This document shows, one piece after another, positions 89 through 18,386 of a stretch of DNA of 25,581 nucleotides. Numbering within the stretch: position 1 is the first letter of the stretch; every line of letters begins with the position of its first letter. This stretch comes from an uncultured archaeon (GTDB taxonomy: Archaea > Asgardarchaeota > Lokiarchaeia > Sigyniarchaeales > SOKP01), in assembly GCA_964447495.1 (NCBI GenBank), contig CAYUTF010000035.1, positions 1 through 25,581 of the forward strand. Direction: 5' to 3'. The notes beneath the pieces were generated by a model. That model did not search any database. It was not told where the DNA came from and worked only from the letters and a program-made list of their open reading frames with translations. Position numbers and translations under genes: made by a program.

Positions 89-328
89 CTATTTTACTGC
101 TTCAAAATAGATGTGCCATTGTTCTTCGTCTTCGATAAAATCGGTTCCTAAATGCTTATGTTTTGTTTGCTTTAATAAGTCTCTTGGAACGGATTCACTT
201 GCGGGTTTATAATCTGTTATAACCTTTAAAACTGTTCCTGGTCGCATTTTCATAAGTTGCTTCTTTGTCTTCAATGCGGGAACAGGACAAACTAATCCGC
301 AAACATTTAATTCCATATCAAAATTCAT
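89..328 (-). CDS. tusA: TusA/SirA-family sulfur carrier protein (copy 2, last gene of the cluster)
   Basis: 79 aa; LNVCGLVCPVP contains the TusA CPxP motif; GTVLKVITD is typical; SD-like GAGGA upstream of the ATG. Confidence 0.9.
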   Translation of the reverse strand: MNFDMELNVCGLVCPVPALKTKKQLMKMRPGTVLKVITDYKPASESVPRDLLKQTKHKHLGTDFIEDEEQWHIYFEAVK

Positions 329-362
329 TTTTCATTCCTCTTAATTATATTTTTGTTATTTT

Positions 363-2834
363 TTATTCACATACTAAATTAAATATTGGCTCATCCATAT
401 CGGGCTCAACTTTCATTTCAATTTTCATTAACTGAGCTAAACGAAGAGCCTCGTAACGAACTTTCTTCGGTTCTAATCGTAAATTTTTTGCGATTTCACT
501 AATAGTACTTGATCCTTGAAGAGTTATATAATCTAAAACCTGTTGTCGAGGTGTTTTTTCGAAGTTTAACAATTCGCGCTTCGATTTAAGATTAATTGCC
601 TTTTTTATTTCTTCTTCATTTACATCTCCTATTTCAAAAAGTTCCTCTTTTATAGCATTCTCTATGATCTCTTTTCCTCTTTCAGTCCACACTACCACAG
701 TGGTGTATCCTTTCTTTGAGCCAACCTCTCCTGCTGTTAAATCAGAATAAATTGCTGGAAAGTCTTGACAATGAGAACAAAAGTGATTGCAGCTTAAACA
801 TCTTCGTGCTTCTTGAAGAGCCATATCTTCATTAAACATCTTATCAATTTCTTCAAAACTCCAAGAAATCTCCTCAGTTGCATCTTCTAATGTATCGGGT
901 TTCAATGAATAATCTTTTGGTGGCTTTTTTGGACCAGTGAAAAACATTTGTTCTCTTAAATAACGTCCTTCCATTAAGTCTTCACCTTTAAGATATCGAT
1001 CAATAGAGATTGCTGCTTCTTTCCCATGAGCAATTGCAGCTATAGCTACGGCTTTTGAGTTATTAATAATATCACCCCCCGCAAAAACTCCTGGGATGTT
1101 TGTTTCGAAGGTAATTTCATTAACTTTTATTTTATTACGTTCTTTTTCTAACTGATTTTGGGTTGCTACATCAATTTGTTCAAAGTCTACTGCCTGTCCA
1201 ACGGCAATCACTACAGAATCTACAGGGATTTTATAATCTGAACCCTCAACTTTATTTAAAGGTCTTCTACCGGTTTCATCTGGTTGACCCCATTCAATTT
1301 TATAACAGTTTAATTCAAGTTGACCATCTTTATTCTCTGTGATTTTAGATGTTGATGTAGCAAAGTGATATTGCATGTATTGGATCTCATTTTCCGGAAT
1401 ATCTTTTAAAACCAGCTCAAGCTGTTCTTCTGACATGATATCAACGAGATGAATTTGTTTTGCACCTAATCTGAGAGCTGTTTGCCCAACATCAACTGCA
1501 ACTGGACCGCCACCAATAATTCCAATTAATCTATCTTTAAATTCCTCATTGTTTTCCCAGTATCGATATTTTCTTTCCATAAGAAATGTAATTGCAACAT
1601 GGACATGAGGTAAATCTTCCCCTTCTAAGTGTAATGTTCGTGGTTTATATTGACCTGTAGCGATGAATATTGCTTCAAAACCCTCATTCTTTAAATCATC
1701 AATCGTCATTTTCGGTCCTAATGGTTTATTAAGTTCAATTTTTACTCCAGATTCCTCTATACGAGATACATCATAATCTAATACATAATTTGGTAATCGA
1801 AATTGTGGTACTCCAAATCGTAACATTCCCCCTGTTTTATCTGATTTTTCGAATATTGTTGGAGCATAGCCCTTTTTTTTCAAAAAGTAACCTGCTGTCA
1901 ATCCTGCAGGGCCAGATCCTATAATCGCAACCTTCTTAGCATTTTTATTGGTCACTTTCTTTCGTTTTAGTGCTTTAGTTTTTGCTTGTTCAATCTCCCA
2001 TTCAGTGACAAATTTCTTTAATTCTCGAATCGCTACCGGATGATCATCACCAATTAAGGTACAACCATGTTCACATTCATTTGTACAAATCCTTCCGCAA
2101 ATTGATGGAAGAGGATTATTCTCTCGAATTAAATTCACAGCGTCTTGATATTTTCCTTGACGAATTAATGAAATATATCCTTGAGCATTAACACCAGAAG
2201 GGCATCCATTGCAGCATGGAGAACATACTAAGCCTTGGTCGGTTTGTTTTGTTCTTATGTGAGAATTACAAAACAGCCCAATTTTTAGAATTTCACGTTT
2301 TATATCACTTTCTAATTCAGCTGCGCCCCTCATTTCACAAGGAACACCAACAATGCCTATTGATTCGTTGGTTTGCCCAACTAAATTAACTAGCTTTTCA
2401 AGAACCCCAGAACGACCATATACAACGCCAGCTTTCTTTACGGCTTCATCAGAATTCGATACAATTTCTGCTTTTGGTTTTTCATCATTTTCTTGAACCA
2501 TAACTATTTCCTCAAGAACTTTCGAATCTAATAATGTTTTAGCTAAAGTCGTTACTACTCCACCATTCGCAGCTTTTGCTAATATTTCAGGATTTTTACT
2601 TCGCAAAGAATAGATAGCTTTTGGTTTTTTTGATTTGAATTTTTTCTGTATTACCTGCGGGCAATTTTCATAACACCGACCGCAGTCTTGTCCATCCCTT
2701 TCAAGAATACAATAGTCTTTTAGAACAGGACGCTTCACACTCATTTCAATATGTTTACATGAACCAGCACATAAGCCACAGCCCTGGCATAATCCTGCCT
2801 CAATTATTTCAGTTTTTAATAATTCAAAACTCAT
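363..2834 (-). CDS. Fe-S flavoprotein: FrhB/FdhB-like (F420-hydrogenase beta) domain interrupted by a GltD/SudA/NfnB-like NAD(P)H:flavin module, with a C-terminal winged helix
   Basis: N-terminal CQGCGLCAGSC and CGRCYENCP; FrhB motifs GGVVTTL, VGVPC and IGLFC; GltD motifs PCCNGCP, ICGRICTNECEHGC, IIGSGPAG, IIGGGPVAVD, TNIPGVFAGGD and EARRCLSC; FrhB C-terminal part CSHCQDF...DLTAGEVGSKKGYTTVVVWTERG; last ~60 aa HTH-like. Confidence 0.85.
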   Translation of the reverse strand: MSFELLKTEIIEAGLCQGCGLCAGSCKHIEMSVKRPVLKDYCILERDGQDCGRCYENCPQVIQKKFKSKKPKAIYSLRSKNPEILAKAANGGVVTTLAKTLLDSKVLEEIVMVQENDEKPKAEIVSNSDEAVKKAGVVYGRSGVLEKLVNLVGQTNESIGIVGVPCEMRGAAELESDIKREILKIGLFCNSHIRTKQTDQGLVCSPCCNGCPSGVNAQGYISLIRQGKYQDAVNLIRENNPLPSICGRICTNECEHGCTLIGDDHPVAIRELKKFVTEWEIEQAKTKALKRKKVTNKNAKKVAIIGSGPAGLTAGYFLKKKGYAPTIFEKSDKTGGMLRFGVPQFRLPNYVLDYDVSRIEESGVKIELNKPLGPKMTIDDLKNEGFEAIFIATGQYKPRTLHLEGEDLPHVHVAITFLMERKYRYWENNEEFKDRLIGIIGGGPVAVDVGQTALRLGAKQIHLVDIMSEEQLELVLKDIPENEIQYMQYHFATSTSKITENKDGQLELNCYKIEWGQPDETGRRPLNKVEGSDYKIPVDSVVIAVGQAVDFEQIDVATQNQLEKERNKIKVNEITFETNIPGVFAGGDIINNSKAVAIAAIAHGKEAAISIDRYLKGEDLMEGRYLREQMFFTGPKKPPKDYSLKPDTLEDATEEISWSFEEIDKMFNEDMALQEARRCLSCNHFCSHCQDFPAIYSDLTAGEVGSKKGYTTVVVWTERGKEIIENAIKEELFEIGDVNEEEIKKAINLKSKRELLNFEKTPRQQVLDYITLQGSSTISEIAKNLRLEPKKVRYEALRLAQLMKIEMKVEPDMDEPIFNLVCE

Positions 2835-2836
2835 TT

Positions 2837-4072
2837 TTATCCCTCTTTGATTTTGATTTCTTTAATTATTCCCTTTGGATCAATACTATAATTTACCGAC
2901 CCATTTTTATAGATTCCTTCCACCACTTCAAAAACATGGCTTTTATATGTTTCAAAATTATCATTATCTTCAATTTGTTTTTTAAATCCGCCAAAATAAA
3001 GATTAGACAGATTCATATTTCCAGCAATTTTCCTAATTTTTTCAGTCGTTTCTTTATACTTTTGAGCATCTTCTTCGCTTGTAGCCTTAATTAATTCAGA
3101 TTCCAATTTAAGTAATTCGGCCCGATACTTTTTTGTTTGTTCGCTTATCTCAATATTATTAGCTTTTTCATAAGATTCTATAATCTTAAGAGTAAGGGAA
3201 ATTGACTTATTTCCTCCTAATAATCCTGTAATCAGAGGTAATTCCTCAATTAATCTTCCAGTAAAAACATCTTGTAATAATTTACCTGAAGATGGTATTC
3301 TACCTGTTGGTAAGCCTGAGGTTGGTAAAGTAAATCTGAAAAAATTTCCGAGAATATCTGGTAGGCTCTCGGTAACATCATCGTCAGCGTCAGCAAGCTT
3401 GTCCGTTGCTCCTTTTTCAGAATGTTCAGTAGCCATTTCAACATTTCCCATAAGAGTACCAAACATCCCTAACATACGGATTCCCGATCGTTCAAGCATC
3501 GGTTTACATCCTCTGCATGGAGTATTGTAATCTATACATCTTTCTTTACATGCTTTTGCTATAAATCCATTACACAGAAATCCTAAATCGTTAAAGCAAG
3601 TATTAGTGTCATCAATCTCGATCTGTCGATTTACTCTATCAAGATAATCGCAAGTTGCTCTCCTCTTACAGACATTGCAAAGTGGTTTGCTTTTAGGAAG
3701 CTCCTTTTCATTTATTATGTAACTCAACTCCTCAATTTCTCCTAGACAACCATTAACATTAAAACCATTACTAATTAAGGAATTTAAAGGAGTTACTTTA
3801 TGTCCTTTTTGGTTTGCTAATGCAAATACCCCACCCGTTGTCGTACAATCACCAAAGGCAACAACTTTTTTAGAATTCTTTTTGATTCGTTCTATCCATT
3901 CTTTATCAGCTGGTAATAAATACCCTGTAATAATAGCCAGATCTATAGATTCTTCCTTCCATTCGCTTGGCTTGGAAATGAGTTCTACATTGATTTTATT
4001 ATCTAACTTCAAAAGAATTGTTTCATAAAAACATTTATTACAACCGTTAAACTGAAAAACTCTAACATTCAT
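2837..4072 (-). CDS. mvhG: MvhG/VhuG-like [NiFe]-hydrogenase small-subunit homologue with a ~150 aa cysteine-free C-terminal extension
   Basis: GCNKC, VAFGDCTTTGG and NGC (proximal cluster); LCNVC, CFNDLGFLC and CKERC...PCRGC (distal/medial clusters); DILGNFFRFTLP resembles the MvhG tail; directly follows mvhD. Confidence 0.75.
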   Translation of the reverse strand: MNVRVFQFNGCNKCFYETILLKLDNKINVELISKPSEWKEESIDLAIITGYLLPADKEWIERIKKNSKKVVAFGDCTTTGGVFALANQKGHKVTPLNSLISNGFNVNGCLGEIEELSYIINEKELPKSKPLCNVCKRRATCDYLDRVNRQIEIDDTNTCFNDLGFLCNGFIAKACKERCIDYNTPCRGCKPMLERSGIRMLGMFGTLMGNVEMATEHSEKGATDKLADADDDVTESLPDILGNFFRFTLPTSGLPTGRIPSSGKLLQDVFTGRLIEELPLITGLLGGNKSISLTLKIIESYEKANNIEISEQTKKYRAELLKLESELIKATSEEDAQKYKETTEKIRKIAGNMNLSNLYFGGFKKQIEDNDNFETYKSHVFEVVEGIYKNGSVNYSIDPKGIIKEIKIKEG

Positions 4073-4514
4073 CTTTGATTGTCCCCTCTTCTTTAATTGC
4101 TGTAGTCAATCGATCAACAATATCCTCGAAATCTCCAACTGCGGTTTCACCTTCAGCAGCTCTCGATGTATATTGGTTAATAAATTGATCACTATATCCT
4201 AATTCTTTGAATAACTTTTTCATTAATTTTATTCTATGCATCGAAAGTAAATTTCCATTAAAAAAATGACATGCACCTATACAACATCCTACGCACGCAA
4301 CAGCATCAGCACCGTTACTTAAAGCGTCCATAATCTGAATGGGTCCAATTTGACCGGTACATTGAACTCTGACAATTCTAATTGCAGGTTCATATGCCAT
4401 TCGAGCCACTCCAGCAGTATTCGCTGAGCCTTGACCACACTCATTACACATAAATACTACTACATTTTGTATTTTTTCCTTTATTTCTTCATCGATTACT
4501 TCACAATCACTCAT
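4062..4514 (-). CDS. mvhD: MvhD-type [2Fe-2S] Hdr adaptor subunit
   Basis: FMCNEC, IRIVRVQCTGQI, ALSNGADAV and GCCIGACHF match the MvhD/FlpD pattern; ATG at 4514 overlaps the hdrA TGA (ATGA) and has GGAGGTG upstream, so it is preferred to the TTG at 4520. Confidence 0.88.
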   Translation of the reverse strand: MSDCEVIDEEIKEKIQNVVVFMCNECGQGSANTAGVARMAYEPAIRIVRVQCTGQIGPIQIMDALSNGADAVACVGCCIGACHFFNGNLLSMHRIKLMKKLFKELGYSDQFINQYTSRAAEGETAVGDFEDIVDRLTTAIKEEGTIKDEC

Positions 4515-6541
4515 TCGCAAACAGCACCTCCGCCAGAAACAGCGATTATTTCATCTAATAATTGATCATCTTTAAAATTAATTAATTGTATTGCTCCAGT
4601 AGGGCACACAGGCATACACATGCCGCATGATTTACACGCAACTTCATTAACAGATGGAATTCCATTTTCATCAATATCAATAGCCGCTGGCGCGCAAACG
4701 GTTTTACATAATCCACACTTAACACATAGGTCATAATTGATGGTAGGAATTAACATTTCTTTCTCAATATATCCTTTTACTAATGGGGCAGCCGCTAAAG
4801 CAGCAGCACTTCCTGCATGTGCCACCGATTCTGAAATATCTTTTGGACCTTGGATTGCTCCTGCCAAAAATATTCCTCCTTTACTGCTTAGAGTTGGATT
4901 CATCTTGATATGAAATTCTTTAAGAAATCCCTCTTTTGATCGCAACACATGAAGTTTCGACCCAAGTGGACCGATCCCTTCAGGAGGGACCATAGCAGCA
5001 GAAAGAACCACTAAATCTGCTTTTAATTGTAATGGCGTTTGACTTAGAGTATCTTCAACAATAACTCTTAATTCACCCGAAATTGGGTTTCGTACTATTT
5101 CAGAAGGTCTCCCTCGAATAAATCTTACCCCTATCTCTTGGGCAGATTTATAGAGTTCTTCAAAGTTAAGCCCAGGCGTTCTGATATCAATATAACAAAT
5201 AGTAACATCGGTATCAGGATACATCTCTTTAATGATTCGCGCATTTTTTATTGCAAATTTACAACATACACCCGTACAATACTGATTTCCGACTTGGTCA
5301 TTTCTACTTCCTACACACTGAATCATAACAACGTTTTTTGGTATTTTACCATCAGAAGGTCTTAAAACTTCACTATTTGTCAATGATGTAGGAGATAACA
5401 TTCGTTCAAGCTTAAGTTGGGTAATCACATCTTCATATCCTTCTTGATTATAGTGATAAGGCTCTATTTCTGTGGGATCATATTCATCATACCCAGCCGC
5501 GACGATAATTGACCCCACTTTTACCGTTTTAGTTTCTGGTTGCATCGAAAAATCTACCGCTTGAACAGGACAAACATTTACACATGTATTGCATTCAATA
5601 CAGTTTTTCTTATCCCGTACATATGTTGCGGGAATCGCTTGCGGGTATGCTTTATATATCGCTTTCCGCATAGACATTCCCATATCCCATTCACTAGGAA
5701 GTTCAACTGGGCAGTGTTCCGCACATTCACCACAAGAAGTACAATTATCTTTGACATAACGGGGCTTAATTTCAAATTCAACTTCAAAATTTCCCAAAGA
5801 ACCGTCTATATTCTTCACTTGAGCATTAGTATACAATTCTATCAAAGGATGATTTGCAACTCCATTCGTTAGAGGTGAGATTGAACATTGTGGACATTCA
5901 AGGGTAGGAAAAGTCTTGTTTAACCTCGTCATATGCCCCCCAATAGTTGATTCTCTCTCTATAAGATATACTGGAATACCTAATTCTGCCATATCATGTG
6001 CCGCCCGAAGACCAGCGATGCCTGCTCCGATTACTAAAGCCGCTTTTGTAGTTTTTACTTTTCGAGTTTCAACATCTTCTAGTTTACGCGCTCTATTTAC
6101 TCCTGCTTCAACCAATTGCTTAGCTTTTTGATTTGCCTTATCTTTTTCCTTTTGGTGAACCCAGCTACAATATTCGCGTACATTCACTTGTTGATGACGA
6201 TGTTTATTAAGCCCCATTTCCTCAATAGCTCGTGCAAATGTCTTTCCATGTTGATTTTTGGAACAACTTGCCACTACAGTACGATTCACCCCTAATTCTT
6301 TAATAGAATCTTTTACCATTTGAACTCCTGGTTTTGAACACATAAACATATAATGTTCTGCTTTTACAACATTAGGCAATGTTTTTGCATAATCAGCAAC
6401 TTTAGCAACATCCACAGTACCTGCAATATTATGACCACAATGACATACAAACACTCCAATTCTTGGTTCTTCTGAATCTATTTCTTTTGATTCCTCTTCA
6501 GTAGTATCTGTTTTTTTTACTTTTCCTTCTTTTATTGTCAA
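4511..6541 (-). CDS. hdrA: Heterodisulfide reductase subunit A (flavin, electron-bifurcating type)
   Basis: RIGVFVCHCG, NVREYCSWVH, LVIGAGIAG, GGHM..L.KTFPT, inserted ferredoxin (CTSCGEC..CP, CIECNTC..CP), IQCVGSR, YCTGVCC, GPKDI, C-terminal 2x[4Fe-4S]; TTG start 1 nt after the hdrB stop. Confidence 0.96.
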   Translation of the reverse strand: MTIKEGKVKKTDTTEEESKEIDSEEPRIGVFVCHCGHNIAGTVDVAKVADYAKTLPNVVKAEHYMFMCSKPGVQMVKDSIKELGVNRTVVASCSKNQHGKTFARAIEEMGLNKHRHQQVNVREYCSWVHQKEKDKANQKAKQLVEAGVNRARKLEDVETRKVKTTKAALVIGAGIAGLRAAHDMAELGIPVYLIERESTIGGHMTRLNKTFPTLECPQCSISPLTNGVANHPLIELYTNAQVKNIDGSLGNFEVEFEIKPRYVKDNCTSCGECAEHCPVELPSEWDMGMSMRKAIYKAYPQAIPATYVRDKKNCIECNTCVNVCPVQAVDFSMQPETKTVKVGSIIVAAGYDEYDPTEIEPYHYNQEGYEDVITQLKLERMLSPTSLTNSEVLRPSDGKIPKNVVMIQCVGSRNDQVGNQYCTGVCCKFAIKNARIIKEMYPDTDVTICYIDIRTPGLNFEELYKSAQEIGVRFIRGRPSEIVRNPISGELRVIVEDTLSQTPLQLKADLVVLSAAMVPPEGIGPLGSKLHVLRSKEGFLKEFHIKMNPTLSSKGGIFLAGAIQGPKDISESVAHAGSAAALAAAPLVKGYIEKEMLIPTINYDLCVKCGLCKTVCAPAAIDIDENGIPSVNEVACKSCGMCMPVCPTGAIQLINFKDDQLLDEIIAVSGGGAVCE

Positions 6542-6542
6542 T

Positions 6543-7460
6543 TTATATTACCTCTTCCTCCTTTTTCATTTCTCTTTCGCCAAAAATATAATTTTTACCC
6601 ATTAATTGATATTGGAGGCCAACAAACTCTTGATCCATTCCCATACAATATGCAGTTAATTGGGAGATATGGATAACAGGATAGTTATAATTACAGTCCT
6701 TATTTTTATTTAGATAATCTTGCCCTGTTTCAAATTGCAAATGACAAAAGGGGCAAATATCTAGTATAAAATCGGGCTTTACCTCATCTATATTCTTCAT
6801 CTTTTCTCCAAAGATAGTCATGCTTGCATCACCCGAATAGGCTTTTACACCACCACCAGCTCCACAACAAGTTAATTGTTCTTTAAAGCGTACAGATTCA
6901 ACGCCTAACGCTTCAAGATACTCCTCGACAATAGTGGGATTCTCTGAACTTTCAATTTCTCTAATTCGGGTTGGTTTTAGAAAGTGACAACCATAATGAA
7001 CGGCAGCTCTTGCATTTACTTTTCTGACAATTATATCTTCAATACCCCAAGGTCCTATTTCATAACCCAAAACTTCAGCTATGTGGCGAACATTAATGGT
7101 TCCCTTGAACTCATAATCTCCAATAAGCTTTAATTTTTCATTTACCATGATTCTATGGTCTTCGTTTTCTTTCAAGTGCTTATTAACTTCTTGAAGGGTT
7201 CCAAAACACCCATTACAAACGGTCAAAATATCAGTATCTAATTGCTCTGCTATACAAAGATTTCTCGCTGCAGCAACCATCCAATCTACCTTGTTAAATG
7301 AGCGGAACACTCCAGGAGCAGGGCAGCAACCAGCTTTTTTCATGTCTAAAAGTTCGTATCCTAATTTTTCCATGACAAATTTTGTAGCCTTTTCTATTGC
7401 TGGATATCTATTCGGCATTAAACACCCGAGAAAAAACGCAAATGTCTTCTCTTTTACCAT
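6543..7460 (-). CDS. hdrB: Heterodisulfide reductase subunit B (two CCG domains)
   Basis: FLGC, GCCPAPG and CNGC; HYGCH, CCGAGGG and CPFCHLQF; strong SD GGAGGAG. Confidence 0.96.
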   Translation of the reverse strand: MVKEKTFAFFLGCLMPNRYPAIEKATKFVMEKLGYELLDMKKAGCCPAPGVFRSFNKVDWMVAAARNLCIAEQLDTDILTVCNGCFGTLQEVNKHLKENEDHRIMVNEKLKLIGDYEFKGTINVRHIAEVLGYEIGPWGIEDIIVRKVNARAAVHYGCHFLKPTRIREIESSENPTIVEEYLEALGVESVRFKEQLTCCGAGGGVKAYSGDASMTIFGEKMKNIDEVKPDFILDICPFCHLQFETGQDYLNKNKDCNYNYPVIHISQLTAYCMGMDQEFVGLQYQLMGKNYIFGEREMKKEEEVI

Positions 7461-7472
7461 TAATTTCTCCTC

Positions 7473-8021
7473 CTATTCTTTGTCCTCTTCCTCTTTAATT
7501 GGAGGAAGAGCAAACAAATATTTTTCAAAATTCTTTAAATCATTATCATCCCCTTCTTGCTTGAATTTATACAAGGTTGGGGGAAGTTCTTCTAATCCTA
7601 ATTCTACTCTTCTTTTCTTTACTTCATCATTTATTGGAACTGCATGTCCCGTAGTTTTCAAAAACCCTACCACTGCTCTATGATTTGGAGATATATTCCC
7701 TCGTTTTGTGGCATAATTCCTTAATTCCATAATAACATCGGTTGGCCTTACATCTCTGGGACATCGCTCATAACATTGATAACATGTTGTACAAAGCCAA
7801 ATATCGGGATCATCTAAAACAGATACATCTCCTAATACAACTTTTCGCACTATTGAGCGAGTTTTTAAAGCAGTCCATCTGCCACTTTCACAACTCGCAG
7901 TACAAGTTCCACATTGAATACATTTCCAAATGTTAGATTTTCGTTCGATATTTTTAAAAAAATCTTCATCAAAATCTTCATCTGTCTTATATTCTCGATG
8001 TTGTTCTTTTACATCAGACAT
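7473..8021 (-). CDS. hdrC: Heterodisulfide reductase subunit C
   Basis: CIQCGTCTASC, IWLCTTCYQCYERCPR, TGHAVP, RVELGL. Confidence 0.95.
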   Translation of the reverse strand: MSDVKEQHREYKTDEDFDEDFFKNIERKSNIWKCIQCGTCTASCESGRWTALKTRSIVRKVVLGDVSVLDDPDIWLCTTCYQCYERCPRDVRPTDVIMELRNYATKRGNISPNHRAVVGFLKTTGHAVPINDEVKKRRVELGLEELPPTLYKFKQEGDDNDLKNFEKYLFALPPIKEEEDKE

Positions 8022-8046
8022 TTTTTACCACCATTTTATTAATTTG

Positions 8047-8061
8047 AAAAAAAAAAAAAAA
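8047..8061 (-). terminator. T15 tract between the dsrE2-like gene and hdrC (candidate internal terminator)
   Basis: 15 consecutive A on the plus strand, 6 nt after the stop at 8068. Confidence 0.4.
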
Positions 8062-8067
8062 TTTAAT

Positions 8068-8484
8068 TTATAATGAAACGATTTGTCCACCATTACTCAT
8101 TTCTAAAAATGAGGCGGCTCCAACAGGTTCTTCTACAAAGTCTAATAAGTCTTCTCTTTTAATCCCCATTAAATCCATAGTCATTTGACATGGATATAAT
8201 TTCATATTACCGTTTTCGACAGCTTCTTTAATCATTCCCCATGGATCTTCTATTCCGAACTTTTTCATTCTTTTCAGGAAGATTTTAGCTCCCATACCTT
8301 TCATAGGAGTAGGCATTCCTGCAACTTTAGGTTTAAATTTCTTTTGTAAAAGGTTTAAACCCCAAAACGTAAAGAAAAAGTTCATTTTAGTATCCATGGC
8401 ATCTCCTGTTGTACCAAGGATCATCATCATTGCGAATTTTTCGAATGATTTATCCTTAACAATAAAATTTACTGATTCAGCCAT
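8068..8484 (-). CDS. DsrE2/YrkE-like (DsrE/F superfamily) sulfurtransferase
   Basis: FFFTFWGL, LYPCQMTMDLMG and VGAASFL motifs; ATG at 8484 follows GGTGG, so it is preferred to the GTG at 8493. Confidence 0.88.
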   Translation of the reverse strand: MAESVNFIVKDKSFEKFAMMMILGTTGDAMDTKMNFFFTFWGLNLLQKKFKPKVAGMPTPMKGMGAKIFLKRMKKFGIEDPWGMIKEAVENGNMKLYPCQMTMDLMGIKREDLLDFVEEPVGAASFLEMSNGGQIVSL

Positions 8485-8605
8485 ATTTTCCACCTTTTTT
8501 TGTTTTTTATTTGTTTATATTTTTATGCAATTTTTTTAGCAGAATGCTAAACTTACGCTTTTTATTAATAGATTTAAAAAATTTTTGTAATTTATCCCGG
8601 ATTCA

Positions 8606-8947
8606 CTAAATCCAAGATATTATTTTTGGTGTTACATCTAAAATTTCTATTAGATCGTCATATTCAAGAGGCTTAATCTTATTATGAATACTTTCGGGAT
8701 TCAATCCTCGTGCCATTAAATCAGGTATCATAGCAAATATAGAAATGTTCAATCTGAGTAGTTCCTCCATCGCTTTCGAGATCTTTCCCTTAGCATTCGT
8801 CCCGATTACTCCATCATGAATTAATACTATTCCAATTTGAATGCCTCTATTAATTTGGGATTTAATTAAGGGTAATAATCGTTCTAAATGATTTCCTGTT
8901 ATTTCACTAAATCCAAATAAATATAGCATGTTCATATTTTGCGACAT
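8606..8947 (-). CDS. dsrH: DsrH/TusB-like sulfur relay subunit
   Basis: VLIHDGV, DLMARGL, YDDLIEIL...IISW; third gene of an E-F-H triplet; SD GGAGG. Confidence 0.85.
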   Translation of the reverse strand: MSQNMNMLYLFGFSEITGNHLERLLPLIKSQINRGIQIGIVLIHDGVIGTNAKGKISKAMEELLRLNISIFAMIPDLMARGLNPESIHNKIKPLEYDDLIEILDVTPKIISWI

Positions 8948-8962
8948 TTTTTTAAACCTCCT

Positions 8963-9331
8963 TTAAAATCTAAAGCAAGTATCTGCTCCCTCAATTAACT
9001 CAACTAATTCTTCAATGTTAATAATCTTTAAATTCTCATATTCAATTAAGTCATCAGCAGTCAAACCAGCTTCTTCTAAAGCTGTATCCACTATAAAGAT
9101 TTCTAAATCAGACAGGTCGGCCATTTCAATAATCTCATCAAAATTGTCCATCCCAATCAGTTCTGGCTTTGTATCTTTACTAAACAAATACACTGCATCT
9201 CCCATTAAAACAACCTGGCAACTAATATATTCACCAAGAGCTACAAATCCCGAACCAATACGAATTGCTTCCCCTGCGGAATTTTTCCCAACGGGTGACT
9301 GATCCGATATTATTACCACAGATTCGACCAT
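8963..9331 (-). CDS. dsrF: DsrF/TusC-like sulfur relay subunit
   Basis: SPVG..AGEAIR, VVLMGDAVY, ALEEAGL, C-terminal Phe; lies between the dsrE-like and dsrH-like genes. Confidence 0.82.
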   Translation of the reverse strand: MVESVVIISDQSPVGKNSAGEAIRIGSGFVALGEYISCQVVLMGDAVYLFSKDTKPELIGMDNFDEIIEMADLSDLEIFIVDTALEEAGLTADDLIEYENLKIINIEELVELIEGADTCFRF

Positions 9332-9336
9332 TTTGC

Positions 9337-9711
9337 TTAACCTCCAGTACCAAATACTATTATTTTATCTGATTCAATAGACCAGTTGGAAAAATCTCCT
9401 AAACCCTCTTCAGTAGCTCCTTTAAAAAAGTTTTCTTCACTAATTCCTGTCAAACTTACCCATGTGCTACAACCTGCTACGGGAATACCGTGTTCATTCG
9501 TAAATTCTTCCAACTTTTTTGGAATATGCCTAATTGACGAGCCACAGCTAATATCACTTTTAAGATTGTACACACCCGAACCAAAAAAGAAAATTCCCCT
9601 AATTCTATTTCCCTTTTTAATCACTGATTTTGATATTTCTATAAGTGAATCGACCGCTTCGAACTTATAAGGCTCCGTACTAATAAAGAATGTATAAGTT
9701 GTCATAGTCAA
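9337..9711 (-). CDS. dsrE: DsrE/TusD-like sulfur relay subunit with the conserved Cys
   Basis: EPY, IFFFGSGVYN, VAGCST (position of the DsrE/TusD active Cys), GLG..DKIIVF; start is TTG 9711 or ATG 9705. Confidence 0.85.
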   Translation of the reverse strand: MTMTTYTFFISTEPYKFEAVDSLIEISKSVIKKGNRIRGIFFFGSGVYNLKSDISCGSSIRHIPKKLEEFTNEHGIPVAGCSTWVSLTGISEENFFKGATEEGLGDFSNWSIESDKIIVFGTGG

Positions 9712-9735
9712 TCTTTCTCCTCAAGTTTAGACGTT

Positions 9736-9969
9736 CTAAGCCTTTTGGATCATAAAAGTTAATTGATCGCCACTTTCGGTTGTTCCGAGTAGCATATCGC
9801 CGGTCTTGTTTAAAAGAGCGGGTACATCTTTCAATGCTCCTTTATCATCAACAATCAGCTCAAGAGTTTGACCAGAATTCATCTTTTTTAACTCTTTTTT
9901 TGTCATCAAAACAGGCATAGGACATTTCTTTCCTACTGCATTTAATGTTAAATCAGCCATTTTTTTCAT
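9736..9969 (-). CDS. tusA: TusA/SirA-family sulfur carrier protein (copy 1, first gene of the cluster)
   Basis: LNAVGKKCPMPVLMTKK, GQTLELIVDD..A..DVP; start may be the second Met (9960). Confidence 0.92.
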   Translation of the reverse strand: MKKMADLTLNAVGKKCPMPVLMTKKELKKMNSGQTLELIVDDKGALKDVPALLNKTGDMLLGTTESGDQLTFMIQKA

Positions 9970-10005
9970 CTATCTTAGTTTTTTCTTCTATTTTTTTTAT
10001 TTTTG

Positions 10006-10032
10006 ATACCAAATTTATTTACTATTTGGTAT
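10006..10032. promoter_or_regulatory. 9-bp inverted repeat ATACCAAAT-N9-ATTTGGTAT upstream of tusA (operator or 5'-UTR hairpin)
   Basis: Perfect arms read directly from the sequence; function inferred from position only. Confidence 0.4.
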
Positions 10033-10081
10033 TACTTGTAGAAAAAAAATGTAAACATCTATTTAAATCATAGTTTTTTTT

Positions 10082-10114
10082 TTTATAAACACTGAATTTT
10101 TTAATAAAAATTCA
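10082..10114. promoter_or_regulatory. TTTATAAA TATA-like box next to the inverted repeat TGAATTTTT-N4-AAAAATTCA in the divergent tusA/lrp intergenic region
   Basis: TTTATAAA at 10082-10089; inverted repeat at 10093-10114; the AT-rich background lowers significance. Confidence 0.35.
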
Positions 10115-10254
10115 CTAAATTTACAAAGAATACTAGAGAAAAAAATTATTAACAAGTAAGAACTATATTTAAATAATGTAAAAAGAAATTTGAGACACTC
10201 TTTTTCAAACTAAAAATTATAAATTATAAATAAAACAGAACTAAGGAATATAAT

Positions 10255-10770
10255 ATGGTTATAACAAATGGACAAATAATCTATTTAGATGAAATTGACA
10301 GAGAAATACTTGAATTATTACAAAACGACGCAAAGATCACAATTAATGAGATTTCTGAAAAAGTAAAAGATAGATTAGGTTTAGATGAACCGAAAAGCGC
10401 AACAGCAATTAGAGCAAGAGTAAAAAGGCTAGAAAAGGATTTAATAAAAAAATATATGGCTATTATTGATTGTAGTAAATTAGGTTATCATGAAATGGTA
10501 ATTGCTTCACTTCGGGTGAACTCTCAGCAGCCTATTGATGATATAAAAAAGGAAATAGAAAGCTTGAACCAAGTTAAATATGCCTACATAGTAACAGGAG
10601 AATATCCTCTTATTGTAATGTTTAAATGCTTAAATCACGCAAATGCTATGGTTTTAATCGAAAAATTGAGAAAAATGCCAGGAGTAGAAGAGATTAAAAC
10701 TCAGATTGTTCTAGATAGAATAAAGGAGGACCATTCAATAATCATTCCTGAAGAAGAGGAAGAAGAATAA
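10255..10770 (+). CDS. Lrp/AsnC-family transcriptional regulator
   Basis: LDEIDREILELLQNDAK, AIRARVKRLE, AIID..KLGY, VTGEY (RAM domain), MPGVEEIKTQIVL; divergent from the sulfur/Hdr cluster. Confidence 0.93.
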   Translation: MVITNGQIIYLDEIDREILELLQNDAKITINEISEKVKDRLGLDEPKSATAIRARVKRLEKDLIKKYMAIIDCSKLGYHEMVIASLRVNSQQPIDDIKKEIESLNQVKYAYIVTGEYPLIVMFKCLNHANAMVLIEKLRKMPGVEEIKTQIVLDRIKEDHSIIIPEEEEEE

Positions 10771-11600: not shown

Positions 11601-12575
11601 CTACTTTGGGTTTTTTTTATTTACAAGAACAATCCCAAATATTACCAAGAGCAGAGAAATTGGGTAGATAAAAACATCAAAATGTTCTTGTAAGAAGAGA
11701 GCTGAGAAAATTACTCCAAATAAAGGCACCAATGTTTGAAAAATCGCGGCTCTACTAGCACTTAAGCGTTTTATTCCCTCTAAATAAAAGGTATATGCTC
11801 CTACTGTGGATAGGAATGCTAAATACATAATTCCAATCCATATTCGAGGTGGAATGTATAAATATTCTAATGGATTTAGAAATTCTGGACTAACTATTAA
11901 TGCTATTGGAGTAGTAGTTAAAAAGCCAAAAAAGGATATCCAAGTGATTATCCATAAAGAACTTGGTTTAGTTAATTCAAGGCAGTTATTAGTTTTATTC
12001 ATGAAATAATGTGAAGTAACAGTATAAGTCGCATAAGCAAAAGCCGCAATTAAAATCAATATATCTCCAAGTAGTCTGTTTAAGACATTAACATTTGGAG
12101 AGAAGCCTACAACAATTACAACAGCAATAAAAGCCATAAGGGTCCCTATCATTTTCCTCCAACTGAATGTTTCTGTTTTTATAAATATGCTGGAAAGAAT
12201 AACCACCCAGACTGCATTTGTGGCAACCATAATACTTGCATCACTTGCGGCAGTAAATATTTCACCAATAAGATAACCTGTCTGATAAATTGTAACTGAT
12301 AATAACCCCATAAACGTTAGGATTTTCCAGTTTTGCTTTGCATATTGCCAGTTTAAAGTTCCTTCTTTGAGTTTAAGAATAATAAAAAAGCATACAATTG
12401 CTAAGAAATATCGTATTGCGGCTATCATAAGGGGAGGAATCGTAGCCCCTCCAATTTCTTCAGAAACCAGCCATCTCCCCATTGGCCAAGTACCACCCCA
12501 AATCACAGCCGTAAGAATCATTAAAAGGTAAGCAACGCCGTCAGACTTTTTAGAAGCGTCTAAATTTGAACTCAT
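11601..12575 (-). CDS. DMT/EamA-family transporter
   Basis: About 10 hydrophobic segments in two repeats; IWGGTW, IRY, LLGDILIL, ASRAAIF..LVPLFG. Confidence 0.93.
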   Translation of the reverse strand: MSSNLDASKKSDGVAYLLMILTAVIWGGTWPMGRWLVSEEIGGATIPPLMIAAIRYFLAIVCFFIILKLKEGTLNWQYAKQNWKILTFMGLLSVTIYQTGYLIGEIFTAASDASIMVATNAVWVVILSSIFIKTETFSWRKMIGTLMAFIAVVIVVGFSPNVNVLNRLLGDILILIAAFAYATYTVTSHYFMNKTNNCLELTKPSSLWIITWISFFGFLTTTPIALIVSPEFLNPLEYLYIPPRIWIGIMYLAFLSTVGAYTFYLEGIKRLSASRAAIFQTLVPLFGVIFSALFLQEHFDVFIYPISLLLVIFGIVLVNKKNPK

Positions 12576-13243: not shown

Positions 13244-14059
13244 TTAATCTTTCTTTAAAGTAGATACTTTTTTATGAGATCGTGGAGGACAACGATAATA
13301 CTTAACATTGGAATACCCTATCGTAAAAACTCCCCAGCTCTTTCCTCTAATTCCGGCTAACTTTGTTAATTTACGATTATTTTGGAAAGCAATTTGAGTC
13401 CATCCGTTATAGCACGTACCTAAACCTAATGATTGAGCAGCTAATCTCCCATAAGTCACTATATTAGCAATATTATAATGATCAATTGGCGTATTTCCTA
13501 AGGCATAAACGATTATTACATGTGGAGCATCAAAATAGATTTGATATTCATATCGCTCATTATTGATTTGAAACGATTCTTCATACATAGACTTTGTTGC
13601 TGAATTCTTGAGGAGTTCTTCTTTCACAGCATCTGATAAAGATTTTAATTGGGAGGGGTCAGAGAGAATTGCTATTTTTTCAGCTCGTATATTAGCTGCT
13701 GTTGGAGCACATTCCATTGCACTAATAACTTTCTCGAGTATTTCTTTTGGTACAGGTTTACTATTATATTTCCTAATAGACCGATTTGCACGTAAAAAGT
13801 TATATATCTTTTCATAAGGAATATAAGTTGCTAAATTGTCTATTCCTTCAAAAGAATAGGGACCATCTCCAAATTCTTCAAAAATAATAGCCTCTTGAGG
13901 GCAAACTGCGATACAATGACCACAAAATATACAACTGCCTGATTTATCCTCAAATATAATCTTGTTATTATCTTCATTCTTTGAGAATCTTCTTGGACAT
14001 TCATTTACGCATAATTCACAGAGATTGCATTTCTCATAATCAATTCCTACTATTGGCAT
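13244..14059 (-). CDS. Ferredoxin-fused nitroreductase
   Basis: CNLCELCVNECP and CIFCGHCIAVCP, then NRSIRKY, APTAAN, FDAP and AAQSLGLGTC. Confidence 0.92.
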   Translation of the reverse strand: MPIVGIDYEKCNLCELCVNECPRRFSKNEDNNKIIFEDKSGSCIFCGHCIAVCPQEAIIFEEFGDGPYSFEGIDNLATYIPYEKIYNFLRANRSIRKYNSKPVPKEILEKVISAMECAPTAANIRAEKIAILSDPSQLKSLSDAVKEELLKNSATKSMYEESFQINNERYEYQIYFDAPHVIIVYALGNTPIDHYNIANIVTYGRLAAQSLGLGTCYNGWTQIAFQNNRKLTKLAGIRGKSWGVFTIGYSNVKYYRCPPRSHKKVSTLKKD

Positions 14060-16622: not shown

Positions 16623-18152
16623 TTAGAATTTATCATCTTCCGAATACCAATCAGGATACCATTGATAATACTCTCTGGGGAATGCTTTTTTCAAACCCTC
16701 GTAAGTTGCTTTAACGAGAACCATTTTGCCTTGCCGGTCGTGATGAATAACAACTAAATGTTGTTCTTCAAGAGTTTCTATTATTTTTTTTATCGCTGAT
16801 CTACTCCCTCCAATATCTTCTCTAACATCATCTGGACTCATATATAATCCAGGGTTTACTTTATAGTCATGAGCAATTACTTTTAATATATTATCTTCAT
16901 TTAATTCAAGTCCATGAAATCGGGATTCCTTTTTTGACACAACGGGAGCATTCACTTCATCATTCCACCTCATTCTCATAGGATGATTATATACCGGGAG
17001 CATTGAAGCGAATCGATATACAATCATTTTTTGAACTTCTGTTGTTCCTGCCACAATTTCGCCAATTTTTCCTTCCCTTACTAATCGTTCGACTGGATAA
17101 AATCTTGTGAGACCATCTCCCCCCATAACCTGTACAGCTTTCAGCCCTGCATCTCTAATATATTCACTAATTACCCATTTTGCTACTGAGGCATCTATCA
17201 TAGGTTCCAGTCCATCATCTAATTGTTTTGCAGTATTATAGGCAAAAAGTCTACCCATTCGATATTTTGCTATGATATCCGCAATTTCATTTTGAATTCC
17301 AGGAAATTGGTTAGTTGTTTTCCTAAATTGAATTCTGCGTTGAGTATACCAGAATAATATATTAATAATATCTTTTAAGGTCCCAACATAAACTGCTCCA
17401 GCAATTAAGCGTTCAAAATTCAATCCTGCCATCATAACATTCCATCCTTTTCCCACAGGACCAATTCTATTCTCATCAGGTATTTTTACATCATCAAATG
17501 TTATATACCCATTAGGTACATTATCAAACCCAACTAATTTATTTATCTTCTCTAGATGAAACCCTGGAGTTCCTTTTTCGACCAAAAATGAAGTAATATG
17601 ACTATATTGTTTTTTCGCATCAAGATCATCACTAGTTTTAGCATAAATGAAATACCTATCTGATACTCCAGCTCCTGTGATATATCTTTTCTTTCCATTA
17701 ATAATCCATTCATCTCCATCTTTTTCTGCGGTCGTCATAACATTTGCTGCATCTGATCCCGCAAATGGTTCAGTTATACAAACAGCTCCTAATTTATCTC
17801 CCTTGGCAAGCTGAGGTAACCATTTTTCTTTCTGTTCTTCTGTAGCATAGCGTAACATTTGCTCTAATCCAGCGAGCATTGAAACAACAAAGACATGACC
17901 TACAGCATATAACCTTCCTAACTGTTCAGCAACGATGCATGAGCCTGTAGCTCCTAATTCTAAACCACCATACTTTTTCGGAATCCCTACTCCAAAGTAT
18001 CCTTCCTTAGCTACTCTCCTAACTAAATCCCAAGGAAATCTTTTTTTCCAAAAATAAGCTTCCGCTTCTTCAAATAGTCCATCTGCGAACGATTCTACTT
18101 TTTTGGCAATTTCTTTTTGTTCCTCTGTCCACCAAAAATAAGATTCACTCAT
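16623..18152 (-). CDS. Acyl-CoA dehydrogenase with a C-terminal winged-helix-like extension
   Basis: IPKKYGG, CITEPFAGSD, INGKKRYITGA, LNFERL, RIQF, VQVMGGDG, GTTEVQ; ~115 extra C-terminal aa; ATG 18152 preferred to TTG 18173. Confidence 0.92.
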   Translation of the reverse strand: MSESYFWWTEEQKEIAKKVESFADGLFEEAEAYFWKKRFPWDLVRRVAKEGYFGVGIPKKYGGLELGATGSCIVAEQLGRLYAVGHVFVVSMLAGLEQMLRYATEEQKEKWLPQLAKGDKLGAVCITEPFAGSDAANVMTTAEKDGDEWIINGKKRYITGAGVSDRYFIYAKTSDDLDAKKQYSHITSFLVEKGTPGFHLEKINKLVGFDNVPNGYITFDDVKIPDENRIGPVGKGWNVMMAGLNFERLIAGAVYVGTLKDIINILFWYTQRRIQFRKTTNQFPGIQNEIADIIAKYRMGRLFAYNTAKQLDDGLEPMIDASVAKWVISEYIRDAGLKAVQVMGGDGLTRFYPVERLVREGKIGEIVAGTTEVQKMIVYRFASMLPVYNHPMRMRWNDEVNAPVVSKKESRFHGLELNEDNILKVIAHDYKVNPGLYMSPDDVREDIGGSRSAIKKIIETLEEQHLVVIHHDRQGKMVLVKATYEGLKKAFPREYYQWYPDWYSEDDKF

Positions 18153-18386
18153 TTTTTTTACCCTTCTAAACAATTCTATAAAAATTATTAATAATCTTAA
18201 TATGCTGTAATTATTTTTAAATCTAAAAGTTTAGGATATTTTATGTGTTTATTCTCTTTTTTAACAAACTAGCATATTTATACTACTTTACAAAAGATGA
18301 AAATAAATTAATGATAGTGTATTATTCTTTCAAAATAAGAAATATTTTAAAGAAGATAGAGTTAAAAAATACATTTTATTGCGTGA

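Follow-up and report, generated by a model that had tools for sequence, protein, structure and literature searches.

A 25,581-nucleotide (nt) stretch of DNA from an uncultured archaeon of the Lokiarchaeia (contig CAYUTF010000035.1 of assembly GCA_964447495.1, positions 1 to 25,581; here called the window; G+C content, ~31%) carries a putative operon in which the genes for a heterodisulfide reductase (Hdr) complex lie among genes for sulfur carriers. Twelve genes, all on the minus strand and spanning positions 89 to 9969, run in the order tusA-dsrE-dsrF-dsrH-dsrE2-hdrC-hdrB-hdrA-mvhD-mvhG*-frhB::gltD-tusA, and a divergent gene on the plus strand encodes an Lrp-type regulator (Table 1). Domains were assigned with Pfam and NCBIfam, and the gene content, order, and coordinates agreed with a first-pass annotation that had been made from the sequence alone. 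Its description of the genes as mostly 1 to 46 nt apart or overlapping also held, since the intergenic distances from the first tusA (tusA1) to the second (tusA2) were 24, 5, 15, 112, 46, 12, 1, -10, -11, 2, and 34 nt, with the one exception of 112 nt lying between dsrH and dsrE2. The same annotation had noted that the window lacks mvhA, dsrAB, dsrC/tusE, mnmA, and a gene for a lipoate-binding protein; when the 28 larger open reading frames (ORFs) of the window were scanned with Pfam, none encoded MvhA, DsrAB, DsrC/TusE, MnmA, or GcvH/LbpA.

Table 1. Features of the hdr-sulfur carrier locus (positions in the window)
Feature	Description	Coordinates	Strand	Basis of assignment
tusA1	TusA sulfur carrier, 77 aa	9736..9969	-	PF01206, 80 bits; CPxP Cys16
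dsrE	TusD-like, 124 aa	9337..9711	-	PF02635; TIGR03012 46 bits, below cut-off; candidate sulfur-binding Cys81
dsrF	TusC-like, 122 aa	8963..9331	-	PF02635; TIGR03010 35 bits, below cut-off
dsrH	TusB-like, 113 aa, cysteine-free	8606..8947	-	PF04077; TIGR03011 44.5 bits vs cut-off 49.2
dsrE2	DsrE2-type carrier, 141 aa, single Cys102	8068..8493	-	PF13686 86.5 bits; NF047629 54 bits, below cut-off
hdrC	182 aa	7473..8021	-	TIGR03290 177.5 bits, over cut-off
hdrB	305 aa	6543..7460	-	TIGR03288 365.6 bits, over cut-off; PF02754 x2
hdrA	676 aa, full length	4511..6541	-	HdrA2 model positions 1-640, 747.6 bits, below cut-off 1100
mvhD	[2Fe-2S] connector to HdrA, 152 aa	4062..4520	-	PF02662 108 bits; MvhD part of HdrA2 model, positions 642-770
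mvhG::mvhA-remnant (mvhG*)	411 aa	2837..4072	-	PF01058 at N-terminus; large-subunit remnant at C-terminus
frhB::gltD	823 aa	363..2834	-	PF04422, PF14691, PF07992, PF04432; NF009410 380 bits, below cut-off
tusA2	Second TusA, 79 aa	89..328	-	PF01206 64 bits; CPxP Cys14 and Cys10
lrp	Lrp/AsnC-family regulator, 171 aa, divergent	10255..10770	+	PF13404 and PF01037
tusA1/lrp intergenic region	285 nt, presumed promoter/operator	9970..10254	.	Position alone

The Hdr genes at the center of the operon resemble those of methanogens. HdrC and HdrB scored over the curated NCBIfam cut-offs of the CoB-CoM heterodisulfide reductase equivalogs, and HdrA and MvhD scored below theirs; the types of HdrA and HdrB were judged by comparison with solved chains. 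HdrB contains two complete CCG motifs (CX31CCX35CXXC and CX39CCX36CXXC), from which two noncubane [4Fe-4S] clusters are predicted, and its ten cysteines were kept in 27 to 28 of 28 orthologs; it matched the solved methanogen HdrB with an E value of 9e-94. HdrC has two CxxCxxCxxxC motifs, with all eight cysteines kept in 22 of 22 orthologs, and the six cysteines of MvhD were kept in 26 of 26. The HdrA sequence includes the N-terminal cysteines, the GxGxxG motif for FAD, and two ferredoxin domains, one inserted and one at the C-terminus, and it aligned with the solved methanogen HdrA over residues 16 to 667 (E value of 7e-198), whereas the solved sHdrA aligned only to residues 340 to 586 (E value of 6e-38). 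These scores and comparisons support the assignment of HdrA, HdrB, and HdrC to the methanogen type by sequence, and they uphold the first-pass description of a single methanogen-like HdrB and HdrC with a full-length HdrA and MvhD.

The gene annotated as mvhG* encodes a 411-amino-acid (411-aa) protein in which residues 1 to ~190 hold 13 cysteines spaced as in a [NiFe] hydrogenase small subunit with three clusters, and a Foldseek search with a model of the whole protein matched MvhG and returned small subunits only. The N-terminus had thus been named correctly at first pass, but the remainder, left there as an unexplained tail, proved to be a large-subunit remnant. This C-terminal region (residues ~263 to 411) had no family match in Pfam; it was strongly conserved except in cysteine, of which it had no conserved position and, in the window's protein, none at all. 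Folded alone, the domain gave a mean predicted local distance difference test (pLDDT) score of 74.8, with values of >85 for most of residues 80 to 160 of the sub-model. When it was aligned with VIA-align against 48,161 chains, the top 15 rows were all [NiFe] large subunits or NuoD/MbhL/MbsL/HycE homologues (Z scores of 9.1 to 12.6, with 143 to 160 residues aligned), and the next row had a Z score of 5.3. The top 10 Foldseek matches of the domain belonged to the large-subunit family too, at weak E values of 0.2 to 0.8. A profile built from the domain matched only 29 representatives among 1.84 billion proteins; 25 were the same fusion family or fragments of it, and three of the last four were true large subunits according to Pfam. 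Alignment of the remnant with one true large subunit by hhalign gave a probability of 96%, an E value of 2.8e-9, and 34% identity over 62 columns, and the large-subunit motif RICGACSISH aligned to GLLGGNKSISL, with the metal-binding cysteines replaced by G286 and K289 and the histidine replaced by L293.

From its sequence and its predicted fold, we read the 411-aa protein as a fusion of a [NiFe] small subunit with a shortened large subunit lacking the nickel-binding CxxC ligands, and the fused remnant is a new observation of this study. Since the metal ligands are lost, the complex, descended from Hdr-Mvh, is predicted to be unable to split H2, and this reading of the sequence rules out H2 as a direct donor. 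The claim that the locus has no hydrogenase catalytic subunit was thereby strengthened. In comparison with methanogen HdrABC-MvhAGD (e.g., 5ODC), the homology of HdrA, HdrB, HdrC, and MvhD is clear, every cofactor motif being present, and the 411-aa protein derives from MvhG and MvhA, but the catalytic large subunit is missing, a FrhB::GltD protein replaces H2 as the input, neither Mcr nor ComA was found, and the operon includes five sulfur carrier genes. Small- and large-subunit pairs that have no metal site and are reused for other redox work are also represented by NuoB/NuoD of complex I and by MbsJ/MbsL; unlike those, the large subunit is here cut to ~150 aligned residues, fused to the small subunit, and placed in a soluble Hdr complex.

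An ordinary H2-driven Hdr-Mvh complex would nevertheless be encoded here if its MvhA lay elsewhere in the genome. The window's own genome (G000; 3.81 Mb in 223 contigs, 98.4% complete) does have [NiFe] large subunits on other contigs, and a 2025 preprint on a related archaeon assumes a group 3c hydrogenase as the donor. However, the two large-subunit matches over the cut-off, on contigs C76 and C32, each adjoin a small subunit of their own, in the orders SSU415-LSU434-hdrC-hdrB (SSU, small subunit; LSU, large subunit) and hdrA::mvhD-mvhG-mvhA, respectively; a third and weaker match, on C17, fell below the cut-off at 23.7 bits. Moreover, the small subunit of the operon already carries its own remnant without nickel ligands, and a FrhB-type input gene occupies the place of mvhA. 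We regard an MvhA supplied from elsewhere as exceedingly improbable.

The input protein, FrhB::GltD, begins with two N-terminal [4Fe-4S] clusters and FrhB_N (residues 75 to 146), continues with an inserted GltD/NfnB-like module (~197 to 660), and ends with FrhB_C (668 to 740) and a tail. The inserted module is predicted from sequence to be of the GltD/NfnB-like NAD(P)H-FAD-2x[4Fe-4S] kind; its PDB matches were NADPH-binding chains of the NfnA/NfnB/StnC type (E values of 1e-86 to 1e-64), and the two ends of the protein matched Fsr/FrhB chains. The C-terminal tail of ~85 aa (residues ~739 to 823; window positions 363 to 617) had no Pfam match at E values of ≤0.01 and by eye resembled a small helical, possibly winged-helix-like, domain. 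As in FrhABG, a FrhB protein stands beside a small-subunit Fe-S wire, but there is no catalytic FrhA. The inserted module is like the NAD(P)H flavoproteins of the NfnB/GltD/DsrL type and differs from them in lying within FrhB, as part of one 823-aa protein.

Because of this GltD/NfnB-like module, NAD(P)H is the best-supported donor for the complex of the window, and F420H2 is a possible one. We had at one stage thought F420 unlikely, since CofD was missing or partial in five genomes, and dropped that view once both CofH and CofD had been found in the window's genus: CofH scored over the cut-off in G000 and in four of four same-genus genomes, and CofD did so in five of five same-genus genomes, the G000 copy being a fragment truncated where its 5.5-kb contig ends. 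In G032, G171, G320, and G312, all of which bear the system, CofD was not found; among these, G171 has FrhB::GltD and G320 has plain FrhB. The input module itself varies, and the FrhB::GltD of the window gives way in other loci to plain FrhB or to a small protein resembling ferredoxin. In locus L077, from family f31 of another class, the gene after the 411-aa gene encodes a 347-aa FrhB of the plain kind, lacking the GltD insert, and L024 has, in place of FrhB::GltD, a 142-aa ferredoxin-like protein containing 4Fe-4S motifs, after which come tusA and another DsrE-family gene. The first-pass proposal of NAD(P)H or F420H2 as the donor therefore stands as far as the GltD/NfnB-like module and the F420 genes of the genus go, and it does not extend to relatives in which CofD was not found or the input protein has been replaced.

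The distribution of the system was determined with the 411-aa protein in a sample of 400 Asgard genomes, where an ortholog (E value of ≤1e-40) was found in 79. Leaving G000 out, orthologs were present in 63 of 134 genomes of family f1, 6 of 14 of f2, and 1 of 4 of f4, all from one order, and otherwise in seven genomes of f31 (32 to 39% identity) and in one of f16. The f16 copy (L086, identical to L034; G113:C137, 10,210 bases) is 70 to 89% identical to the window, and a mis-binned short contig is a more likely explanation for it than transfer. Twelve of 20 loci around the 411-aa gene had the full 12-gene order, one lacked only a detectable dsrH, six were cut by contig ends, and one was rearranged, namely L024, which comes from a closed 4.4-Mb genome. 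A second set of 52 loci, found with FrhB::GltD and sharing genomes with the first set, had the full order in 29, which were all 29 of those with at least 7,456 bases upstream; of the others, 20 were truncated with a consistent partial order and 3 held less than half of FrhB::GltD. Among the seven f31 loci, which have the order hdrC-hdrB-hdrA-mvhD-411-aa gene, tusA followed in five and dsrE-F-H in three, and L077 has a DsrE-family gene upstream of hdrC. Since the hdr and carrier genes are still together in f31 despite their different order, the linkage survives rearrangement, and the possibility, raised at first pass, that the two gene groups might be unlinked in relatives was not borne out. 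An Lrp homologue lay beside the cluster in 47 of the 84 related loci searched, the second class (f31) among them. The constant core of the system is thus hdrCBA-mvhD-411-aa gene with TusA, DsrE-family carriers, and Lrp, with a varying input, and its arrangement, which recurs in dozens of species, is far beyond chance. Locus variants also occur in closed genomes, with FrhB::GltD in G171 and G038 and with ferredoxin-type input in G032.

Within the family, the system was present in 49 and absent in 40 of 89 genomes that were at least 90% complete. Such patchiness fits an accessory, habitat-linked function, and since selD was found in 86 of the same 89 genomes, it argues against a housekeeping role or one in selenoprotein synthesis.

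Except in DsrH, the catalytic cysteines of the carriers hardly varied among orthologs. Cys16 of TusA1 was kept in 15 of 15 aligned orthologs, Cys14 of TusA2 in 29 of 29 (Cys10 in 19 of 29), Cys81 of DsrE in 19 of 19, and Cys102 of the DsrE2-type protein in 18 of 18; TusA2 had 22 invariant columns among 25 sequences from two classes. A second HdrCB locus with carriers was found in same-genus genomes (L093, 5773 to 13009, in G007:C20, and also L094 and L095). At that locus, genes for the 438-aa small and 434-aa large subunits of a true [NiFe] hydrogenase accompany hdrC and hdrB, without hdrA, and sit divergently beside genes for TusA, full-length YeeE, DsrE, DsrF, and DsrH. No carrier genes were found beside the orthologous hydrogenase-hdrCB locus on C76 of G000. 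By gene content, we take the L093-type locus to be an independent repeat of the pairing of HdrB and HdrC with carriers. A further dsrE-F-H set, 36 to 48% identical, lies 3 to 4 kb beyond the tusA2 gene of the operon in each of two related genomes, at L008 (2437 to 3520) and L012 (16401 to 17498).

TusA- and DsrE-type proteins also occur in a likely selenium-handling locus of G000 (C55:8822-12838; L091, 3822 to 7838), where YedE/YeeE is encoded by two half-size genes (171 and 169 aa), after which come genes for a 75-aa TusA and for a 414-aa protein whose C-terminal domain is of the DsrE type and then selD with an in-frame TGA; the split-YedE and selD neighborhood recurs in G264, G191, G279, G277, and G281. 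We considered whether the YeeE/YedE-TusA genes on C55 might import thiosulfate to feed the operon and rejected this, since they adjoin selD and since YeeE does not track the operon. The selD neighborhood bears as well on a reading in which the carriers of the operon traffic selenium and the complex reduces a selenotrisulfide or perselenide for selenophosphate synthesis. In keeping with that reading, the best NCBIfam match of TusA2 was YedF, although far below its cut-off, and Lokiarchaeia are reported to use selenocysteine. Against it, the excess of selD over the operon among the family genomes makes the operon dispensable for selenoprotein synthesis, and a bifurcating complex seems out of scale for a trace element, so we consider a selenium function very improbable.

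McrA and DsrC/TusE (PF04358) had no match in G000, and neither siroheme sulfite reductase (PF01077) nor ComA was found in any of five system-bearing genomes (G000, G032, G171, G320, and G312). The first-pass annotation had asked for a genome-wide search for these genes and for mvhA, and it had placed the system in a nonmethanogenic host; with McrA and ComA not found, a nonmethanogenic Lokiarchaeia-type Asgard host is supported by the gene content, and for the same reason CoM-S-S-CoB, the heterodisulfide of coenzymes M and B, is an unlikely substrate. The MnmA family (PF03054) gave weak partial PP-loop matches only, with a control profile matching in 14 of 14 genomes. Two GcvH-family (GCV_H) genes of G000, on C20 and C49, are unlinked to the operon. 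At least 15 HdrA-like ORFs are spread over many contigs of G000 (C2, C4, C5, C9, C25, C32, C51, C126, and others); several are ~1,000 aa long and align with HdrA over two or three separate stretches, and some of these adjoin MvhD-like genes.

Carrier-bound sulfur is proposed here as the substrate because the linkage of five carrier genes to hdr is kept in two classes, because DsrC/TusE, CoM-S-S-CoB, and sulfite are without a genetic basis in these genomes, and because the second HdrCB locus also pairs with carriers. CCG-domain enzymes reduce sulfur carried on DsrC, and HdrB may by analogy act on a carrier persulfide. The operon would then encode one cytoplasmic redox machine of Lokiarchaeia-type Asgard archaea with four parts, a core, a wire, an input, and a substrate supply. 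The methanogen-type HdrABC would form the core, in which HdrA would carry the bifurcating FAD and HdrB the two noncubane [4Fe-4S] sites, and the wire would consist of MvhD and the small subunit with its catalytically dead large-subunit remnant, which would no longer activate H2. FrhB::GltD would draw on NAD(P)H, and possibly also on F420H2, for electrons and pass these through the small-subunit clusters and MvhD to HdrA. On the supply side, the two TusA proteins, a DsrEFH-like complex, and the DsrE2-type protein would carry sulfane sulfur as cysteine persulfides and present it to HdrB directly or as a carrier-bound polysulfide or trisulfide. HdrB would reduce this sulfur to H2S and, of each electron pair, the second would go uphill to ferredoxin; the operon would be under the control of the Lrp-type regulator. 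To the proposal that the operon encodes an electron-bifurcating Hdr, fed by NAD(P)H and/or F420H2, that reduces sulfane sulfur on TusA/DsrE carriers, we give an even chance, judging from sequence and from analogy with characterized enzymes. We prefer it to every other reading considered, and it is in essence the mechanism suggested at first pass, refined by a dead hydrogenase module and an exchangeable input.

Several observations weigh against this proposal. DsrH has no cysteine, nor did any column of conserved cysteine appear among 18 DsrH sequences, and all of the carriers scored below their NCBIfam equivalog cut-offs, with the Pfam matches of DsrE, DsrF, and DsrH over their gathering scores. 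In the known DsrEFH/TusBCD relay, sulfur passes from TusA to DsrE/TusD and on to DsrC/TusE. The operon shares with that relay the consecutive DsrE, DsrF, and DsrH family genes after tusA and the conserved DsrE cysteine; it differs in the low equivalog scores of all three, in the cysteine-free DsrH, and in that the acceptor DsrC/TusE was not found. The YeeE/YedE importer is not associated with the system (20 of 49 genomes with it and 14 of 40 without it), and since TusA/DsrE-type proteins also stand beside selD, such carriers are not specific evidence for sulfur. The input is not constant, as L077 and L024 show, and NAD(P)H can therefore not be the universal donor. The reduction of elemental sulfur (S0) or polysulfide to H2S has a potential of ~-260 to -270 mV, against ~-140 mV for CoM-S-S-CoB, so that NAD(P)H-driven bifurcation to ferredoxin would be marginal if the sulfur species on the carrier were not a stronger oxidant. 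Finally, the active site of methanogen HdrB is buried, so that direct entry of a protein cysteine is uncertain.

HdrB might instead reduce a low-molecular-weight heterodisulfide or thiol persulfide of Asgard archaea, with TusA and DsrE making or loading the thiol or serving an unrelated sulfur insertion. HdrB is very close to the CoM-S-S-CoB-reducing enzymes, which take small substrates, the scores of the carriers below their equivalog cut-offs would fit as well, and a 2024 paper speaks of the Asgard Hdr substrate as "an unidentified heterodisulfide compound." However, the locus holds no candidate thiol pathway, ComA was not found in any of the five genomes searched, and a side role of the carriers is hard to reconcile with their linkage to hdr in two classes and at the second Hdr locus. 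A small heterodisulfide therefore seems unlikely to us.

The carriers and Hdr could also carry out the chemistry proposed here for an assimilatory or protective end, supplying biosynthesis with sulfide drawn from imported thiosulfate, S0, or persulfides, or detoxifying sulfane sulfur, without an energy-coupled sink. The 2025 preprint proposes reductive sulfur assimilation through Hdr and TusA/DsrE persulfides for its related archaeon, which has no sulfite reductase, and siroheme sulfite reductase was not found in our five genomes either. A full bifurcating HdrA with a large Fe-S wire would, on the other hand, be costly for a trace flux, and the 40 family genomes without the system must assimilate sulfur all the same. 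Near-identical DNA is, moreover, present in metagenomes of salt-marsh sediment, where free sulfide is usually plentiful. We consider a purely assimilatory or protective role improbable.

The direction of the reaction was weighed against sHdr-LbpA, a sulfur-oxidizing system with TusA/DsrE3 for which TusA/DsrE-type sets are hallmark companions (Tanabe et al. 2024, PMC11094781). In an oxidative reading modeled on it, carrier sulfane sulfur would be oxidized, and NAD(P)+ and/or ferredoxin would be reduced. The genetic tie of an Hdr-type complex to TusA and DsrE-family transferases is common to both, but sHdr is encoded as hdrC1B1A-hyp-hdrC2B2, with two HdrB/HdrC pairs, a short nonbifurcating HdrA, and lipoate-binding proteins, whereas the operon has one HdrB and one HdrC, a 676-aa HdrA of the long, bifurcating type, and MvhD, and its locus has no LbpA gene, the GcvH-family genes lying elsewhere. 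The hosts, which we take to be anaerobic fermenters or acetogens, also fit an oxidative pathway poorly. The complex probably works in the direction opposite to sHdr, and oxidation carries only a slight chance in our estimate.

The system most alike in its working is FlxABCD-HdrABC of sulfate reducers, an NADH-dependent complex proposed to reduce DsrC. Both have a pyridine-nucleotide input, an MvhD-like connector, HdrABC, and a sulfur carrier as the proposed acceptor, but FlxA is of the FNR type and the operon has FrhB with a GltD/NfnB-type module and no DsrC. An FNR-type module of G000 lies in a separate cluster on C53 (6963 to 13945; L089), the closest paralog of the operon at 38 to 50% identity, which has hdrC-hdrB-hdrA-mvhD followed by genes for a FrhB/Fer4 protein, a Fer4_22 protein, and an FNR-type FAD/NAD-binding protein in a Flx-like arrangement.

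As to precedent, the first-pass annotation had left open whether the system had been described. In a figure legend, the 2025 preprint proposes for its related archaeon an H2-driven reduction by Hdr of the persulfides on TusA and DsrE, so that the idea of Hdr acting on carrier persulfides is in part described already and the system is not wholly undescribed. We found no description of the operon itself, of the GltD insertion in FrhB, or of the fused large-subunit remnant in open-license PubMed Central papers or bioRxiv preprints, whose supplementary gene tables may list the genes. The fuller proposal that goes beyond this precedent is that an H2-independent "pseudo-hydrogenase" Hdr, converted from Hdr-Mvh, bifurcates electrons of NAD(P)H (or F420H2) to ferredoxin with TusA/DsrE sulfane sulfur as the high-potential acceptor, and we put it forward tentatively, doubting more than believing it in this complete form.

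Apart from Lrp, the neighbors of the operon were not conserved beside it in the 84 related loci, among them an EamA transporter gene (11601 to 12575). The window also encodes a 271-aa ferredoxin-nitroreductase fusion (13244 to 14059) and a 516-aa acyl-CoA dehydrogenase extended at its C-terminus by ~130 aa (16623 to 18173), and neither is conserved beside the operon.

The conserved tie between a methanogen-type HdrABC and a complete set of persulfide carriers offers a concrete and testable substrate hypothesis for the Hdr of Asgard archaea, which could be put to the test soon if the closed genomes G171, G038, and G032 are those of cultured strains. The small subunit with its dead remnant clearly illustrates how a hydrogenase has been put to new use as an electron wire, and not every "Mvh-Hdr" annotation in an Asgard genome consequently implies H2 metabolism, which affects the metabolic reconstructions behind models of eukaryogenesis. 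If the pseudo-hydrogenase Hdr works as proposed, it would represent a previously unknown, energy-coupled cytoplasmic reduction of S0 or polysulfide, would name the long-sought substrate of Asgard Hdr, and would bear on the hydrogen-sulfur syntrophy models of the origin of eukaryotes.

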